Source: a virus
Lineage: Duplodnaviria > Heunggongvirae > Uroviricota > Caudoviricetes
Virus record (IMG/VR): IMGVR_UViG_2778261058_000019
DNA length: 15,691 nt
Strand: one strand, 5' to 3'
The notes beneath the pieces were generated by a model that searched no databases, was not told the DNA's origin, and saw nothing but the letters and a program-made list of their open reading frames with translations. Positions within the stretch are counted from its first letter, which is position 1. Every line of letters begins with the position of its first letter. The position numbers and the translations under genes were made by a program. This document shows, piece after piece, positions 1,109 to 11,808 of the stretch.

Positions 1109-2158
1109 GTGCGGGTATTACTTAGACCTGTTCTGGTGCCTGAGCTTGGGCTGGTGGTCCTTAAGCCGGGCCGTGAATCCATACAGATATTTCATAATCC
1201 TCGAGTGCTGGTGGAACCGGAACCAAAAAGCATGCGTAATCTGCCATCCGGAGTCGTTCCTGCCGTTCGCCAGCCGCTGGCGGAAGACAAAACATTGCTG
1301 CCGTTTTTTAGTAACGAACGGGTGATTCGTGCTGCTGGCGGCGTTGGCGCATTGTCCGACTGGCTATTACGTCATGTTACATCCTGCCAGTGGCCTAATG
1401 GCGATTACCATCACACTGAAACAGTCATTCACCGTTATGGTACCGGCGCAATGGTGTTGTGCTGGCACTGCGACAACCAACTGCGTGACCAGACATCGGA
1501 ATCACTGGAGCTGCTTGCTCAACAAAATCTGACAGCATGGGTGATTGACGTCATCCGTCACGCAATAAGCGGTACGCAGGAGCGGGAATTATCTTTGGCT
1601 GAATTATCCTGGTGGGCGGTCTGCAATCAGGTGGTGGATGCACTACCTGAGGCTGTATCGCGTCGTTCGCTGGGATTACCAGCGGAAAAAATCTGCTCGG
1701 TGTACCGCGAAAGCGACATCGTACCGGGAGAGCAGACCGCCACCAGCATATTGAAACAACGCACAAAAAATCTTGCACCGTTGCCTTACGCCCACCAGCA
1801 ACAAAAATCACCACAGGAAAAGACGGTGGTAAGCATCACCGTTGATCCAGAGTCTCCGGAATCTTTCATGAAGCTGCCTAAACGTCGCCGCTGGGTTAAG
1901 GAGAAATACACACGTTGGGTTAAGACACAGCCGTGTGCTTGCTGCGGTATGCCAGCCGACGATCCGCATCATCTGATTGGTCACGGGCAGGGCGGAATGG
2001 GAACAAAAGCACATGATCTCTTTGTGTTGCCTTTGTGCAGAAAGCATCACAACGAGCTGCATACGGATACAGTGGCATTTGAAGATAAGTATGGCTCCCA
2101 ACTGGAGCTGATATTTCGTTTTATCGATCGCGCGCTGGCAATTGGCGTACTGGCGTAA
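1109..2158 (+). CDS. ydfU: YdfU-like prophage protein (349 aa) with HNH-like Cys/His motif at the C-terminus
   Basis: Long ORF ending TAA 2156-2158. GTG 1109 follows GGAGG (1100-1104) and gives 349 aa, the length I recall for YdfU; the ORF track begins at an upstream ATG (1070, 362 aa). C-terminus reads CACCGMPADDPHHLIGH...CRKHHNELH. Confidence 0.65.
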   Translation: MRVLLRPVLVPELGLVVLKPGRESIQIFHNPRVLVEPEPKSMRNLPSGVVPAVRQPLAEDKTLLPFFSNERVIRAAGGVGALSDWLLRHVTSCQWPNGDYHHTETVIHRYGTGAMVLCWHCDNQLRDQTSESLELLAQQNLTAWVIDVIRHAISGTQERELSLAELSWWAVCNQVVDALPEAVSRRSLGLPAEKICSVYRESDIVPGEQTATSILKQRTKNLAPLPYAHQQQKSPQEKTVVSITVDPESPESFMKLPKRRRWVKEKYTRWVKTQPCACCGMPADDPHHLIGHGQGGMGTKAHDLFVLPLCRKHHNELHTDTVAFEDKYGSQLELIFRFIDRALAIGVLA

Positions 2159-2171
2159 GTGGAGAACGAGC

Positions 2172-2924
2172 ATGAACCTTGAAGCCTTACCAAAATATTA
2201 CTCCCCAAAATCTCCAAAATTGAGCGATGACGCTCCAGCGACAGGCACCGGTTGTTTAACAATTACGGATGTAATGGCAGCGCAGGGGATGGTGCAGTCG
2301 AAAGCACCACTTGGGTTGGCCTTATTTCTGGCAAAAGTTGGTGTTCAGGACCCTCAGTTTGCGATTGAAGGCCTGCTAAATTACGCGATGGCACTGGATA
2401 ACCCGACATTGAACAAATTGAGTGAAGAAATCCGGTTACAGATTATTCCTTACCTCGTGAGTTTTGCCTTTGCTGATTACTCCAGGTCTGCGGCAAGTAA
2501 GGCTCGCTGTGAGCATTGTTCAGGTACGGGATTTTATAATGTATTGCGCGAAGTGGTGAAACACTACAGACGCGGGGAATCTGTAATCAAGGAAGAATGG
2601 GTGAAGGAACTATGTCAGCATTGCCATGGTAAGGGCGAAGCCAGCACAGCGTGCAGAGGGTGTAAGGGTAAAGGGATTGTTCTGGATGAAAAAAGAACCC
2701 GGTTTCATGGCGTACCGGTATATAAGATTTGTGGGCGTTGTAATGGAAACCGGTTTAGTCGTTTACCGACCACGCTGGCACGACGTCATGTCCAGAAGCT
2801 GGTACCAGACCTGACCGATTATCAGTGGTATAAGGGGTATGCGGACGTCATTGGTAAACTGGTAACAAAGTGCTGGCAGGAAGAAGCATACGCGGAAGCG
2901 CAATTGAGGAAGGTGACGAGATAA
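2172..2924 (+). CDS. quuQ: Late-gene antiterminator Q homolog (250 aa) with four DnaJ-type CxxCxGxG repeats
   Basis: ATG 2172 follows GGAG (2161-2164) and gives 250 aa; the ORF track starts at an in-frame TTG at 2142. It sits just upstream of a promoter-plus-terminator module and the lysis genes, as Q does in lambdoid phages. Cys repeats are CEHCSGTG, CQHCHGKG, CRGCKGKG and CGRCNGN. Confidence 0.7.
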   Translation: MNLEALPKYYSPKSPKLSDDAPATGTGCLTITDVMAAQGMVQSKAPLGLALFLAKVGVQDPQFAIEGLLNYAMALDNPTLNKLSEEIRLQIIPYLVSFAFADYSRSAASKARCEHCSGTGFYNVLREVVKHYRRGESVIKEEWVKELCQHCHGKGEASTACRGCKGKGIVLDEKRTRFHGVPVYKICGRCNGNRFSRLPTTLARRHVQKLVPDLTDYQWYKGYADVIGKLVTKCWQEEAYAEAQLRKVTR

Positions 2925-2955
2925 ATGATTTTTGCTGAAGATGGCGACATGATGT

Positions 2956-2984
2956 TTGCATTTTTCAAAAAATATGGATAAAAT
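2956..2984 (+). promoter_or_regulatory. Candidate Q-dependent late promoter (PR'-like)
   Basis: TTGCAT (2956-2961), 17-bp spacer, TAAAAT (2979-2984), immediately after the Q homolog and about 45 nt before a strong terminator. This is the typical PR'-qut-tR' arrangement; called by eye only. Confidence 0.35.
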
Positions 2985-3030
2985 TTTTTCAACGATGGGC
3001 TTTGTATACCCGACGTTAAGAAAAAGTAGA

Positions 3031-3057
3031 AAACCCGCTGATGAGCGGGTTTTGTGC
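3031..3057 (+). terminator. Rho-independent terminator (tR'-like) after the candidate late promoter
   Basis: Hairpin AACCCGCT-GATG-AGCGGGTT followed by TTTGTGCTTT. Confidence 0.65.
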
Positions 3058-3345
3058 TTTAAATGGGGCAATGGTAATGTTGAATCTCATCCCGGGACTC
3101 ATGTCTGTTAACTTATTATTTAGCTGGTGACTTGGTTATTTGCCTGATGTTTAAAATGTTTTCTTCCAGTACAATGTCCCTAAACACAATGAGTCTGCTT
3201 ATTATATTATTAGCAGAGCTATTACGGCCAAAGTACAGCATAAGCTTTTAAAGCCAATCAACCAGTCATCAAGACAGACGGGGTTATTCATAAAAACTCT
3301 CCATGTGTGATCCGATGGGGCCTGAAATTAAAGCTTTAATATAGC

Positions 3346-3558
3346 TCATGAAAGGTAAACATTGGCAGCTGAAGGGCCACGCAGACCATTTATCCGGCAA
3401 AATTCCACGCGTAATCCGGTGGTAATTTCTTCTGCATCGCGGAGATTGAGCGCTGAAACATGAAGCTGGACATCGATACGACCATCGGATGGGGTGATAA
3501 GACCCTTGCCGCTTTTGCCGTCAAAGGTTTTGACAATTCCTGTCATTTTACGGGACAA
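3346..3558 (-). CDS. cspF: Cold-shock protein CspF (CspA family, 70 aa)
   Basis: Translation [26 protein letters not shown]...[16 protein letters not shown] is a cold-shock domain protein. The first codon is TTG at 3558-3556 with SD AAGGA six nt upstream; the first in-frame ATG (3546) would have an 18-nt spacing. Confidence 0.8.
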
Positions 3559-3858
3559 AAAAATTCCTTAATACTGATAACTTGGCGCACTATACACACG
3601 TTCCTGAAGAAAGCTATAGTTTTTTGATGGGGTTGAAGATGGCTGGATGTCTAAAATAAACATTGCTTCATATGTTCAACTATGCGTTAATGATTGCGTC
3701 GGTTTGAAGAACAGACGATATACGAAGTAGTTTACTAAAGCAGTTCTCATTTCAGGTGTTATTCACTTATTCCTTCTTTGAGTCTCTCCAATTAAGTACG
3801 AAGTCGTTTCTGTTATGCAAACCATTTATGCCGAAAGGCTCAAGTTAAGGAATGTAGA

Positions 3859-4074
3859 ATGTCAAATAAAATGACTGGTTTAGTAAAATGGTTTAACGCT
3901 GATAAAGGTTTCGGCTTTATTTCTCCTGTTGATGGTAGTAAAGATGTGTTTGTGCATTTTTCTGCGATTCAGAATGATAATTATCGAACCTTATTTGAAG
4001 GTCAAAAGGTTACCTTCTCTATAGAGAGTGGTGCTAAAGGTCCTGCAGCAGCAAATGTCATCATTACTGATTAA
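3859..4074 (+). CDS. cspB: Cold-shock protein CspB (CspA family, 71 aa)
   Basis: [38 protein letters not shown]... carries the cold-shock domain RNP motifs KGFGFI and VFVHF. SD AAGGA at 3847-3851, ATG at 3859. Confidence 0.9.
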
Positions 4075-4356
4075 AATTCATCGCTCGTCTGTATACGATA
4101 ACGAAGAAGGCTGATGCCTGAGTAGAGATACGGACAGAGTAGTGAATATTGGATCTCTTTAATAAAAAGTAAGGAGGTCCAATACATGAAACAATGGCTA
4201 GCATATTTGGCAAAATCTTAATCAGGAAAAGTATGCTAACCATTGTGGTGAAGTGCAGGTTTGCTGCATGAATAGTTTTACAGCAGAAGCTAACTGCTGG
4301 CATGGCAAAACAAAGTGCGTAAGTGGATGACTCCCACAAAAAGCACCACAATCTCA

Positions 4357-4378
4357 AACCCGCTCAGGCGGGTTTTTT
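4357..4378. terminator. Rho-independent terminator, probably bidirectional (cspB transcript and the convergent zinc-ribbon gene)
   Basis: Hairpin AACCCGC-TCAG-GCGGGTT followed by TTTTTT on the + strand, with an A-run upstream that gives a U-run on the - strand. Confidence 0.65.
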
Positions 4379-4437
4379 ATTATCTGCTTTAAATATATTA
4401 TTAAAATATAAAAAATACTTGTTACTAATAAAATCAA

Positions 4438-4608
4438 TCAGGCTACAGCTTTAAGATTTGTCTGGAATACTTTGTTGCAATGAGGGCAGATCAAAAGGGC
4501 ACCTTTTTGTACTCTTGAAAAACTGTGTTCTGACTCTTGGGTGCAGTTTGGGCAGGAACATTTAACGAGATAATTACGGCGTGATTTTGAGTTTTTACGT
4601 TCTGACAT
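4438..4608 (-). CDS. ynfU: Small zinc-ribbon protein (56 aa; CxCxxC...CxxC)
   Basis: ATG at 4608-4606 is preceded by AGGA about 8 nt upstream. Product MSERKNSKSRRNYLVKCSCPNCTQESEHSFSRVQKGALLICPHCNKVFQTNLKAVA. The track's 73-aa version starts at an upstream ATG with no SD. The symbol ynfU (56-aa zinc-binding protein in Qin) is from memory and is uncertain. Confidence 0.5.
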   Translation of the reverse strand: MSERKNSKSRRNYLVKCSCPNCTQESEHSFSRVQKGALLICPHCNKVFQTNLKAVA

Positions 4609-4827: not shown

Positions 4828-5043
4828 ATGAAATCAATGGATAAGTTAACAACAGGTGTTGCCTATGGCACATCGGCGGGTAATGCTGGTTTCTGGGCAT
4901 TGCAGTTACTCGATAAAGTAACTCCGTCACAGTGGGCTGCAATCGGTGTGCTGGGTAGCCTGGTTTTTGGCCTGCTGACGTATCTGACAAATCTTTATTT
5001 CAAGATTAAAGAAGACAGGCGTAAGGCTGCGAGAGGAGAGTAA
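4828..5043 (+). CDS. essQ: Class II pinholin, S21-like (71 aa), with dual-start motif MKSM
   Basis: [71 protein letters not shown] closely resembles the phage 21 pinholin as I recall it. Met1 and Met4 give the holin/antiholin dual start. A GGGGTGAGGA SD precedes; the ORF track starts 25 codons upstream at an ATG with no SD. Confidence 0.85.
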
Positions 5044-5047
5044 TCCA

Positions 5048-5355
5048 ATGACTCAAGACTATGAACTGGTTGTGAAAGGAGTCCGTAATTTTGAGAATAA
5101 AGTTACGGTAACTGTAGCCTTACAGGACAAAGAACGCTTTGACGGTGAAATTTTTGACCTGGATGTCGCCATGGACCGTGTTGAAGGAGCTGCGCTGGAG
5201 TTTTATGAGGCAGCAGCCAGAAGGAGCGTCCGGCAAGTCTTCCTGGAAGTAGCAGAAAAATTGTCAGAAAAAGTTGAGTCTTATCTGCAGCATCAGTACT
5301 CCTTTAAGATTGAAAATCCTGCCAATAAGCACGAGCGTCCTCATCATAAATATCT

Positions 5356-5359
<4 letters not shown>
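5048..5359 (+). CDS. ydfR: YdfR-like protein (103 aa) inserted between holin and endolysin
   Basis: ORF with strong SD GAGAGGAGAG (5031-5040); stop TGA 5357-5359 overlaps the endolysin ATG (ATGA). Function unknown. Confidence 0.7.
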
Positions 5360-6383
<1,024 letters not shown>

Positions 6384-6745: not shown

Positions 6746-6958
6746 ATGTCTAACAAAATGACTGGTTTAGTGAAATGGTTTAACCCTGAAAAAGGTTTTG
6801 GTTTCATCACGCCGAAAGATGGCAGCAAAGATGTGTTTGTCCATTTCTCAGCAATTCAGAGCAACGATTTCAAAACATTAACTGAGAATCAGGAAGTTGA
6901 ATTTGGTATTGAGAACGGACCTAAAGGTCCTGCCGCTGTTCATGTAGTGGCGCTTTGA
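6746..6958 (+). CDS. cspI: Cold-shock protein CspI (CspA family, 70 aa)
   Basis: [38 protein letters not shown]... is a cold-shock domain protein and a close paralog of the cspB copy at 3859. Confidence 0.9.
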
Positions 6959-9045: not shown

Positions 9046-9591
9046 ATGGAAGTCAACAAAAAGCAGCTGGCTGACATTTTCGGTGCGAGTATCCGTACCA
9101 TTCAGAACTGGCAGGAACAGGGAATGCCCGTTCTGCGAGGCGGTGGCAAGGGTAATGAGGTGCTTTATGACTCTGCCGCCGTTATAAGATGGTATGCCGA
9201 AAGGGATGCTGAAATTGAGAACGAAAAGCTGCGCCGGGAAGTTGAAGAACTGCGGCAGGCCAGCGAGACAGATCTCCAGCCAGGGACTATTGAGTACGAA
9301 CGCCATCGACTTACGCGTGCGCAGGCCGACGCACAGGAGCTGAAAAATGCCAGAGACTCCGCTGAAGTGGTGGAAACCGCATTCTGTACTTTCGTGCTGT
9401 CGCGGATCGCAGGTGAAATTGCCAGTATTCTCGACGGGATCCCCCTGTCGGTGCAGCGGCGTTTTCCGGAACTGGAAAACCGACATGTTGATTTCCTGAA
9501 ACGGGATATCATCAAAGCCATGAACAAAGCAGCCGCGCTGGATGAACTGATACCGGGGTTGCTGAGTGAATATATCGAACAGTCAGGTTAA
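9046..9591 (+). CDS. nohQ: Terminase small subunit Nu1 homolog (181 aa), apparently full length
   Basis: MEVNKKQLADIFGASIRTIQNWQEQGMPVLRGGGKGNEVLYDSAAVIRWYAERDAEIEN... is essentially lambda gpNu1 with its N-terminal helix-turn-helix. The 3' end overlaps the start of the terminase A reading frame as in lambda. Symbol by analogy with Qin (nohA/nohQ). Confidence 0.85.
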   Translation: MEVNKKQLADIFGASIRTIQNWQEQGMPVLRGGGKGNEVLYDSAAVIRWYAERDAEIENEKLRREVEELRQASETDLQPGTIEYERHRLTRAQADAQELKNARDSAEVVETAFCTFVLSRIAGEIASILDGIPLSVQRRFPELENRHVDFLKRDIIKAMNKAAALDELIPGLLSEYIEQSG

Positions 9592-11242
9592 CAGGCTGCG
9601 GCATTTTGTCCGCGCCGGGCTTCGCTCACTGTTCAGGCCGGAGCCACAGACCGCCGTTGAATGGGCGGATGCTAATTACTATCTCCCGAAAGAATCCGCA
9701 TACCAGGAAGGGCGCTGGGAAACACTGCCCTTTCAGCGGGCCATCATGAATGCGATGGGCAGCGACTACATCCGTGAGGTGAATGTGGTGAAGTCTGCCC
9801 GTGTCGGTTATTCCAAAATGCTGCTGGGTGTTTATGCCTACTTTATAGAGCATAAGCAGCGCAACACCCTTATCTGGTTGCCGACGGATGGTGATGCCGA
9901 GAACTTTATGAAAACCCACGTTGAGCCGACCATCCGCGATATTCCGTCGCTGCTGGCGCTGGCTCCGTGGTATGGCAAAAAGCACCGGGATAACACGCTC
10001 ACTATGAAGCGTTTTTCCAATGGTCGTGGCTTCTGGTGCCTGGGCGGTAAAGCGGCAAAAAACTACCGTGAAAAGTCGGTGGATGTGGCGGGTTATGATG
10101 AACTTGCTGCCTTTGATGAGGATATTGAACAGGAAGGCTCTCCGACGTTCCTTGGCGACAAACGTATTGAAGGCTCGGTCTGGCCAAAGTCCATCCGTGG
10201 CTCCACGCCCAAAGTGAGAGGCACCTGCCAGATTGAGCGTGCAGCCAGTGAATCCCTGCATTTTATGCGTTTTCATGTTGCCTGCCCGCACTGCGGGGAG
10301 GAGCAGTATCTTAAATTTGGCGACAAAGAGACGCCGTTTGGCCTCAAATGGACGCCGGATGACCCCTCTAGCGTGTTTTATCTCTGCGAGCATAATGCCT
10401 GCGTCATCCGCCAGCAGGAGCTGGACTTTACTGATGCCCGTTATATCTGCGAAAAGACCGGGATCTGGACCCGTGATGGCATTCTCTGGTTTTCGTCATC
10501 CGGTGAAGAGATTGAGCCGCCGGACAGTGTGACCTTTCACATCTGGACGGCGTACAGCCCGTTCACCACCTGGGTGCAGATTGTCAAAGACTGGATGAAG
10601 ACGAAAGGGGATACGGGAAAACGTAAAACCTTCGTGAACACCACGCTCGGTGAGACATGGGAAGCGAAAATCGGCGAACGTCCGGATGCTGAGGTGATGG
10701 CGGAGCGGAAAGAGCATTATTCAGCGCCCGTTCCTGACCGTGTGGCTTACCTGACCGCCGGTATCGACTCCCAGCTGGACCGCTACGAAATGCGCGTATG
10801 GGGATGGGGGCCGGGTGAGGAAAGCTGGCTGATTGACCGGCAGATTATTATGGGTCGCCACGACGATGAACAGACGCTGCTGCGTGTGGATGAGGCCATC
10901 AATAAAACCTATACCCGCCGGAATGGTGCAGAAATGTCGGTATCCCGTATCTGCTGGGATACTGGCGGGATTGACCCGACCATTGTGTATGAACGCTCGA
11001 AAAAACATGGGCTGTTCCGGGTGATCCCCATTAAAGGGGCATCCGTCTACGGAAAGCCGGTGGCCAGCATGCCACGTAAGCGAAACAAAAACGGGGTTTA
11101 CCTTACCGAAATCGGTACGGATACCGCGAAAGAGCAGATTTATAACCGCTTCACACTGACGCCGGAAGGGGATGAACCGCTTCCCGGTGCCGTTCACTTC
11201 CCGAATACCCGAAACTTGCAGTTGCTTATCCGTCAGGCGTGA
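9566..11242 (+). pseudogene. Terminase large subunit (gpA-like), 3'-truncated by a deletion; 558 codons with a short out-of-frame tail
   Basis: GTG 9566 starts MNISNSQVNRLRHFVRAGLRSLFRPEPQTAVEWADANYYLPKES..., which follows lambda gpA (641 aa) as I recall it up to ...LPGAVHFPN near 11207. The frame then reads [11 protein letters not shown] and stops at 11240-11242, so the C-terminal ~90 residues of gpA are missing. Confidence 0.85.
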
Positions 11243-11808
11243 TCCCTGATATGCGTGGCTGGACGATTAAGGGCAAGCCCGCCAGTGGTCGGGCCGTATT
11301 ATCTCAGGAACAGGACGGCATTAAATCGCACACCCACAGCGCCAGCGCATCCAGTACGGATTTGGGGACGAAAACCACATCGTCGTTTGATTACGGAACC
11401 AAATCCACGAATAACACCGGGGCGCATACCCATAGTATTAGCGGGACCGCAAATAGTGCCGGTGCGCACCAACACAAGAGTTCCGGTGCATTTGGTGGCA
11501 CGAACACGAGCATTTTCCCTAATGGTTATACCGCGATTTCAAATCTAAGCGCGGGGATTATGAGCACAACAAGCGGTAGTGGCCAGATTCGTAATGCAGG
11601 GAAGACATCATCAGATGGTGCTCATACCCACTCGCTGTCCGGCACTGCTGCAAGCGCAGGCGCACATGCACATACTGTCGGTATTGGTGCTCATACGCAC
11701 TCCGTTGCGATTGGTTCACATGGACACACCATCACCGTTAACGCTGCTGGTAACGCGGAAAACACCGTCAAAAACATCGCATTTAACTATATTGTGAGGC
11801 TTGCATAA
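11239..11808 (+). CDS. stfQ: Side tail fiber protein (Stf-like), C-terminal fragment (up to 189 aa) with GAHTHS-type repeats
   Basis: This frame is open from 11176 and already reads [28 protein letters not shown]... across the junction. The first possible starts are GTG 11239 and ATG 11251, with no clear SD. His/Gly/Ala-rich repeats (GAHTHS, GAHQH, GAHAH) are typical of lambda-type side tail fiber C-termini. May be an unexpressed remnant. Confidence 0.6.

Follow-up and report, generated by a model that had tools for sequence, protein, structure and literature searches.

QuuQ, the antitermination protein of the Qin prophage, is best read as a late-gene antiterminator of the Q-lambda family in which four cysteine motifs (here called knuckles) make up an arm of two zinc ribbons, with knuckles 1 and 2 forming an upstream ribbon A and knuckles 3 and 4 a downstream ribbon B. 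We put the probability of this reading at roughly three in four. The gene was analysed within a stretch of 15,691 nucleotides from a virus of the Caudoviricetes (IMG/VR record IMGVR_UViG_2778261058_000019; hereafter the window), for which a preliminary description had reported DnaJ-type repeats in a Q homolog.

Identity of quuQ and its relation to Q-lambda

Over positions 1500–4500 the window matches the Qin prophage of E. coli K-12-type strains (e.g., C600 and J53) with 100% identity, and in these strains the annotated gene order is ydfU (DUF968), ydfT (antitermination protein Q, that is, quuQ), cspF and cspB. The quuQ coding sequence occupies 2172–2924 on the plus strand (250 amino acids and a stop codon). 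Its ATG at 2172, before which stands GGAG, is the RefSeq start of ydfT in E. coli C600, where the DNA is 100% identical, and the TTG at 2142 from which the mechanically called open reading frame begins is not the annotated start. Qin is a defective prophage, and a literature search on QuuQ/ydfT found no paper showing any activity of the protein. The gene, its Q family and its DnaJ-motif annotation are already public, so that the discovery value is small.

Profile and structure searches agree with the earlier identification of the protein as a Q antiterminator. A Pfam search assigns QuuQ to PF03589 (Antitermination protein Q, Q-lambda family) at E = 3.6e-54 (181.3 bits; cut-off 26.7), and a phmmer search of PDB sequences returned Q-lambda as the sole confident match (7ubm_Q at E = 4.6e-36, plus 4mo1 and 7ubj). 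The alignment pairs QuuQ residues 1–120 with Q-lambda 1–125 and QuuQ 160–250 with Q-lambda 117–207, the latter segment being gapless. Modelled at full length with AF2 from a 27-sequence alignment (pLDDT 75), QuuQ likewise matched only chains of Q-lambda among PDB structures (7ubn_Q, E = 7.6e-13, TMt 0.66); no other structure reached an E value under 2. We used the Q-lambda structures PDB 4MO1 and 7UBJ–7UBN for comparison; in the crystal structures the zinc is bound by C118, C121, C144 and C147.

In Q-lambda, a four-helix body that includes an HTH bears a zinc ribbon, the "arm" (residues 114–152), which touches the distal bases of the Q-binding element (QBE; positions 11–13) and the beta' zinc-binding domain (ZBD) of RNA polymerase (RNAP). 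Residues 110–112, 117 and 122–126 make the contact with the beta' ZBD, and residues 1–44, together with NusA, refold to form a torus by which the RNA-exit channel is lengthened (PMC9388147). According to the phmmer alignment, the N-terminal ~44 residues of QuuQ (2172–2303, plus strand) are homologous to this torus or nozzle segment, whose role is taken from the same study (PMC9388147). Residues 1–29 of the QuuQ model have pLDDT values below 50, which is consistent with disorder of the N terminus off RNAP.

Four cysteine motifs and their distribution

Translation bears out the four CxxCxGxG-type repeats of the preliminary description, all encoded on the plus strand. Knuckle 1 (C113EHCSGTG, 2508–2531) and knuckle 2 (C148QHCHGKG, 2613–2636) are those that we assign to the extra ribbon A, and knuckle 3 (C161RGCKGKG, 2652–2675) and knuckle 4 (C187GRCNGNR, 2730–2753) are those of ribbon B, the counterparts of C118/C121 and C144/C147 of Q-lambda, respectively. 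Three of the four match CxxCxGxG perfectly, and the fourth is CxxCxGxR, without the terminal glycine. [quoted passage not shown] The quoted end overshoots the final codon by a single base; the motifs lie mid-protein, spanning residues 113–194 of 250, and successive motifs are separated by 27, 5 and 18 residues, which corresponds to spacings of 35, 13 and 26 from first cysteine to first cysteine.

Could the motifs have arisen by chance or from composition, or might the open reading frame be no real gene? The one point in favor is the defective state of the Qin prophage, and the probability is close to nil. Four or more CxxCxG motifs occurred in none of 200,000 shuffles of the QuuQ protein, the gene is annotated in RefSeq, a word-indexed search found 357 homologs at E ≤ 1e-5, and intact phages encode proteins 93–100% identical to QuuQ (tblastn, phage genomes). 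Together these observations refute the artefact reading. A search of the other reading frames of the window found no CxxCxGxG.

All eight cysteines and the motif glycines are invariant across 24 arm sequences with identities down to 27%, and the same is true of 27 full-length homologs bar a single deletion variant, P0013, a natural variant that has lost part of the region between knuckles 1 and 2. We infer zinc occupancy, and since the eight cysteines are invariant we consider two zinc sites in the arm very likely. It is far less probable that zinc sits in the ribbon of knuckles 3 and 4 only and that knuckles 1 and 2 persist as a non-metal structural relic or as a redox-sensitive disulfide pair, although a single ribbon suffices for Q-lambda function (PMC9388147), P0013 occurs naturally and the length of finger A, the stretch that links knuckles 1 and 2, is hypervariable. 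Against such a one-zinc arm, C113, C116, C148 and C151 with their glycines are among the residues invariant in the 24 sequences, four knuckles are retained in 28 distinct 50%-identity clusters, and conserved CxxCxGxG pairs that bound a hairpin are a hallmark of metal sites.

The four-knuckle arm is standard in QuuQ's branch of the Q-lambda family. An exhaustive search of 50%-identity representatives recovered 209 relatives; four knuckles were counted in 28 of the 53 near-full-length cluster representatives and two in about 10. Knuckle 3 reads CxC instead of CxxC in 21 of the 28 four-knuckle forms, and a plain count of CxxC in those forms therefore reveals just three motifs. By tblastn, long-form Qs are encoded by PhiR42_1 (100%), mEp460 and Stx2c-converting phages (94%) and Salmonella phage 118970_sal3 (93%), and at 36–42% by phi80, HK225, SF6 and Klebsiella and Erwinia phages; lambda, P22, HK97 and their relatives have a 207-amino-acid short-form Q. 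For phi80 Q and SF6 Q, direct alignment showed all four knuckles.

Public collections already attach the DnaJ motif model to QuuQ and to more than a hundred homologs. Among the best 120 of the 357 homologs, nearly all bear precomputed matches to Pfam PF00684 (DnaJ_CXXCXGXG) together with PF03589, and one paper remarks in passing that InterPro labels two CXXCXGXG motifs of a Q-like phage protein an incomplete DnaJ CR domain (PMC5313236). The repeats had been presented as unusual for a Q; they are instead a regular, publicly annotated feature of the branch, a finding that the preliminary description had itself named as telling against its proposal. A literature search, to which older papers on lambda and phi80 Q were out of reach, found no paper describing a doubled zinc ribbon in Q.

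Probable pairing of the knuckles

Sequence alignment and structural models identify knuckles 3 and 4 (C161, C164, C187 and C190) as the homolog of the Q-lambda zinc ribbon. This assignment is based on the gapless alignment, the equal spacing, the shared CR(D)C signature and the columns aligned by Foldseek. The spacing from knuckle 3 to knuckle 4 is 25 or 26 in 26/28 long forms, and the two knuckles of short forms are likewise 25 or 26 apart in 6/7 cases. An arginine follows the first cysteine in 19/28 knuckles 3 and in 5/7 first knuckles of short forms, compared with at most one knuckle 1, and the CxC variant, present in 21/28 knuckles 3, recurs in 3/7 short-form first knuckles. By homology, C161, C164, C187 and C190 should bind zinc as C118, C121, C144 and C147 of Q-lambda do.

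Structure prediction points to the same correspondence. In both of two independent AF2 runs, the segment between knuckles 3 and 4 (2676–2729, plus strand) is predicted to form a strand, a helix and a strand (E169–171, H173–179, E184–186), an arrangement resembling the Q-lambda arm, to which Foldseek also matched it. The best PDB matches of an arm-only AF2 model (pLDDT 81.3) are to Q-lambda, with 45–48 Foldseek columns, 40–42% identity and rmsd values of 2.7–5.8 Å (2.7–3.2 Å against the Q-lambda complex structures). The length and identity of this match fit QuuQ residues ~158–205, with both knuckles included. The PF00684 profile places the two knuckles of Q-lambda, and equally knuckles 3 and 4 of QuuQ, on DnaJ motifs 2 and 3, which in DnaJ jointly bind one zinc.

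Knuckles 1 and 2 (C113, C116, C148 and C151) would then form a second, upstream ribbon, a pairing that we derive from predicted secondary structure and by elimination. Both AF2 runs predict finger A (2532–2612, plus strand) as a long beta-hairpin (E121–131/E137–147) directly bounded by knuckles 1 and 2, and knuckles that bound a hairpin in the model suggest zinc-ribbon geometry. The predicted secondary structure as a whole appears to fit two ribbon units, of which unit B superposes on the Q-lambda ribbon. Spacing in the family is compatible with this arrangement: knuckles 1 and 2 lie anywhere between 14 and 63 residues apart in the 28 four-knuckle representatives, whereas knuckles 2 and 3 are 13 apart in all 28 and the spacing of knuckles 3 and 4 is also nearly fixed (above), a pattern that would suit a loop with pinned ends. 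The pairing is thus probably sequential, 1+2 and 3+4, rather than nested as in DnaJ.

Three observations run counter to sequential pairing. Knuckles 2 and 3 are 13 residues apart, near the spacing of the knuckle pair that holds the single zinc of anti-TRAP, and a site formed by 2+3, with nested 1+4/2+3 ligation, is therefore sterically conceivable. Knuckle 1 (RCEHCSGTG), moreover, is about as similar to RCRDCHGTG of Q-lambda as knuckle 3 is, so that the first Q-lambda knuckle (C118RDCHGTG) can be aligned with either of the two. Nor is there significant sign of an internal duplication: when the 1-to-2 and 3-to-4 segments were compared by BLASTP, they matched over no more than 10 residues (E = 0.058), which leaves a recent tandem duplication without support.

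The cysteine-rich (CR) domain of DnaJ pairs its four motifs in a nested manner (1+4 and 2+3) and folds as a V-shaped extended hairpin. The DnaJ-like type of the QuuQ motifs, as first described, holds at the level of the profile: PF00684 matches QuuQ at 35.4 bits, slightly more than its gathering score (32.7), and the alignment extends over residues 148–193 and profile positions 1–50 of 65, covering knuckles 2–4 only. Q-lambda (23.1 bits), phi80 Q (24.0), SF6 Q (22.0) and other relatives (20–30 bits) also match the same profile, below threshold. Because single-ribbon Q-lambda and its relatives give such matches too, the CxxCxGxG knuckle is a family-wide building block of Q-lambda-type arms and no special acquisition of QuuQ. 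The contrast drawn in the preliminary description with a "single zinc finger" was accordingly overstated, since the single ribbon of Q-lambda itself consists of two such knuckles.

Similarity to DnaJ does not extend to the domain. NCBIfam models of full-length DnaJ score QuuQ at 8–23 bits, with cut-offs of 338–585, and DnaJ models align in different registers (for example, 144–193 to 142–195 versus 109–175 to 140–211); these shifts imply similarity of motifs, not of domains. Foldseek aligned the arm model with DnaJA2 (7zhs) over 90 columns at a probability of 0.93, ranked below Q-lambda, with an rmsd of 8.8 Å, a TM score of 0.34 and E = 0.14, and the TM score against BSD2 was 0.17. Foldseek found no global DnaJ CR fold (V-shaped extended hairpin) in the arm model, and a Pfam search found neither a J domain nor a DnaJ C-terminal domain in QuuQ. 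We reject the idea that the arm was derived from DnaJ, given the inconsistent registers, the scores far below thresholds and the equal motif similarity of single-ribbon Qs.

A genuine DnaJ-type module could nevertheless be built by nesting, with knuckles 1+4 as a basal zinc centre equivalent to that of Q-lambda and knuckles 2+3 as a distal centre inserted in the arm. We regard this arrangement as unlikely. The PF00684 score above the gathering threshold, the long and high-probability DnaJA2 alignment and the anti-TRAP-like spacing of knuckles 2 and 3 are in its favor, as is the position of knuckle 1, which follows the body helix exactly as the first knuckle of Q-lambda does and shares R-C..C.GTG with it. 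Yet the DnaJA2 comparison is no match at the level of fold, the PF00684 alignment leaves out knuckle 1 and registers differ among DnaJ models. The first knuckle of short forms has the signature of knuckle 3 (CRC/CRDC), consistent with the gapless alignment of QuuQ 160–250 with Q-lambda 117–207, and the 1-to-2 segment is itself predicted as a hairpin, not as a single strand that pairs with the 3-to-4 segment; the missing J and C-terminal domains likewise argue against a DnaJ module. Of the double zinc-centre module of DnaJ type put forward in the preliminary description, the two zinc sites are thus very likely to stand and the DnaJ topology is probably wrong. In the structural comparison that it had suggested, the modelled arm resembles Q-lambda best.

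Probable second ribbon, its possible role and comparison with known systems

Downstream of quuQ lies an intact, lambda-like cassette of promoter, pause element and terminator, all on the plus strand. A promoter scan and alignment with lambda and phi80 pR' place a pR'-like late promoter at 2956–2984 (−35 TTGCAT at 2956–2961, −10 TAAAAT at 2979–2984), and its 17-bp spacer (2962–2978) presumably contains the QBE, as the Q site of phi80 is annotated in the equivalent spacer. Six bases past the −10 begins AACGAT (2991–2996), a −10-like sigma-dependent pause element. By alignment it lies inside a block, TCAACGATGGG, that lambda has in identical form, and in lambda its part in sigma-dependent pausing is established (PMC9388147). 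A terminator scan found a strong intrinsic, tR'-like terminator at 3030–3061, with a 10-bp GC-rich stem, a GAUG loop and a U-rich tail (RNA fold −23.9 kcal/mol, z = −9.1). A promoter and terminator had been reported at 2956–3057, correctly so.

By homology with Q-lambda, the four-helix HTH body of QuuQ would bind the QBE between the −35 and −10 of the 2956–2984 promoter, with help from ribbon B. RNAP would halt at the AACGAT element, where QuuQ would engage the paused enzyme; the N-terminal ~44 residues would refold as a nozzle within the channel by which RNA leaves, and polymerase so fitted would read through the terminator at 3030–3061. In the arm, knuckles 1 and 2 would clamp the long beta-hairpin, and ribbon A would be joined to ribbon B by a fixed 5-residue linker. 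The preliminary description had suggested that the motifs serve to engage DNA or RNAP, which agrees with the contacts that the corresponding Q-lambda arm makes with QBE DNA and the beta' ZBD (PMC9388147).

Positions equivalent to Q-lambda 110–117 are held in QuuQ by knuckle 2 and the linker between knuckles 2 and 3, and ribbon A would thus adjoin the surface that contacts the beta' ZBD. Ribbon A, we infer, is most likely a lineage-variable accessory finger that would enlarge or retune the contact with RNAP or DNA. A stronger version, in which ribbon A is a functionally distinct second contact module that makes a further contact, either with DNA or with RNAP (at the beta' ZBD, the flap or sigma R4), and so sets the specificity or efficiency of loading, is possible but less likely than not, and nested DnaJ-like ligation of the four knuckles is a less likely variant that ranks below it. 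If ribbon A does form such a module, the single-ribbon structures of Q-lambda would be an incomplete model for most of the family. Structural work on this Q family has all been done on the single-ribbon lambda protein, whereas most of the relatives recovered here carry a second ribbon; phi80 Q and Qs that switch on the late genes of Shiga-toxin phages are among them. A role for ribbon A would refine the model of Q loading, not overturn it.

Among known systems, the DnaJ CR domain (PF00684, IPR001305) resembles QuuQ in its four repeats of CxxCxGxG type, and both probably contain two zinc sites of the tetrahedral Cys4 kind. They differ in pairing (nested in DnaJ, probably sequential in QuuQ) and in first-cysteine spacings (roughly 17, 22 and 14 in E. 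coli DnaJ as against 35, 13 and 26), and the J and client-binding domains of DnaJ are absent from QuuQ. Anti-TRAP (RtpA; PF15777; PDB 2BX9 and 3LCZ) resembles QuuQ in having two adjacent DnaJ-like knuckles about 13–14 residues apart, and anti-TRAP models and structures weakly match QuuQ residues 146–173 (3lcz, E = 0.11; NF058604, E = 1.8e-4), all below curated cut-offs. In contrast to QuuQ, anti-TRAP forms oligomers, has only 53 residues and one zinc, and is unrelated to Q function.

The closest parallels are found among the Qs themselves. Q-lambda and QuuQ have in common an N-terminal nozzle segment, a helical HTH body and a zinc-ribbon arm of CxxCxGxG knuckles, as well as the layout of promoter, QBE, sigma-dependent pause and terminator with its identical TCAACGATGGG block. 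Overall identity between the two proteins is about 33% (tblastn) or 41% (MAFFT alignment), and QuuQ differs in carrying about 43 extra residues (113–159), with two more knuckles and the long beta-hairpin, N-terminal to the Q-lambda-type ribbon. The phi80 pR' promoter (TTGCAT-17-TAGATT) is laid out like that of Qin and its spacer contains the annotated Q site, and phi80 Q (gp17) has four knuckles (CDCCDGGG, CKPCNGKG, CR-CHGKG and CDRCGGRG), as does the Q of Salmonella phage SF6. Both have CxC in place of the CxxC of QuuQ at knuckle 3, and phi80 Q has a longer finger A and a total length of 269 amino acids. The Qs of mEp460 and Stx2c phages, 94% identical to QuuQ as noted above, share the same four-knuckle arm. 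These Qs belong to intact phages, whereas QuuQ resides in a defective prophage.

Natural variants and annotation of the Q arm

Two homologs of QuuQ, the Q-lambda-family antiterminator, carry altered versions of its arm, the segment with four CxxCxGxG-type knuckles. In P0013 (Salmonella, 221 aa), a clean deletion starts just past knuckle 1 and ends inside knuckle 2. P0224 keeps knuckle 4 and a knuckle-2-like motif and has knuckle 3 decayed to ILAAGAG. Such variants suggest that recombination or decay has taken place between the knuckle-coding repeats, and that the choice of pairing partners among the knuckles is somewhat plastic. Among the matches listed, a newer Pfam family, PF27659, is assigned to the N-terminal part of QuuQ homologs and presumably represents the Q N-terminal and body region. 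IS elements (IS600/IS100, IS1A and IS3) split the ydfU-quuQ-csp region itself in several genomes of E. coli (CE10, EC06 and P377).

Neighboring proteins and the terminase region

Directly upstream of Q lies the gene for the DUF968 protein, ydfU (1070-2158; annotated start ~1110), whose product contains Cys/His clusters (CACCG...HH...CRKHHNELH) and, in its C-terminal part, weak HNH-nuclease-like matches (HNHc_6, 6.8e-06; RecA_dep_nuc, 0.004). The small protein YnfU (PF23499; 4438-4608, minus strand) shows a match of zinc-ribbon type (Zn_Ribbon_YjdM, E = 2e-4), as well as a faint match to a portion of the ATPase domain of the gpA terminase (E = 1e-3). The terminase region (9046-11808) runs from an intact Nu1-like small terminase (9046-9591) through a 558-aa gpA large-terminase ORF with ATPase and nuclease domains (9566-11242) to an adjoining tail-fiber-repeat ORF (11239-11808). 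The boundary between the last two looks like a deletion junction of the defective prophage. In comparison, the Qin copy in the K-12-type strain C600 has ~1.3 kb less terminase sequence than the window.

The late region and its regulatory cassette

Three cold-shock-protein paralogs, cspF (3346-3558, minus strand), cspB (3859-4074, plus strand) and cspI (6746-6958, plus strand), occupy the part of the prophage late region between its Q-dependent terminator and the lysis genes essD, ydfR, rrrQ and rzpQ (~4828-6383). Downstream of quuQ, positions 2940-3070 hold a full lambda-like late regulatory cassette, including a −35 element (TTGCAT), a −10 element (TAAAAT) and a block, TCAACGATGGG, that is the same as the sigma-dependent pause element of lambda. 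A strong terminator (dG −23.9 kcal/mol) follows ~40 nt beyond this block. The predicted leader transcript would be ~65-70 nt in length, whereas the leader of lambda itself is far longer.
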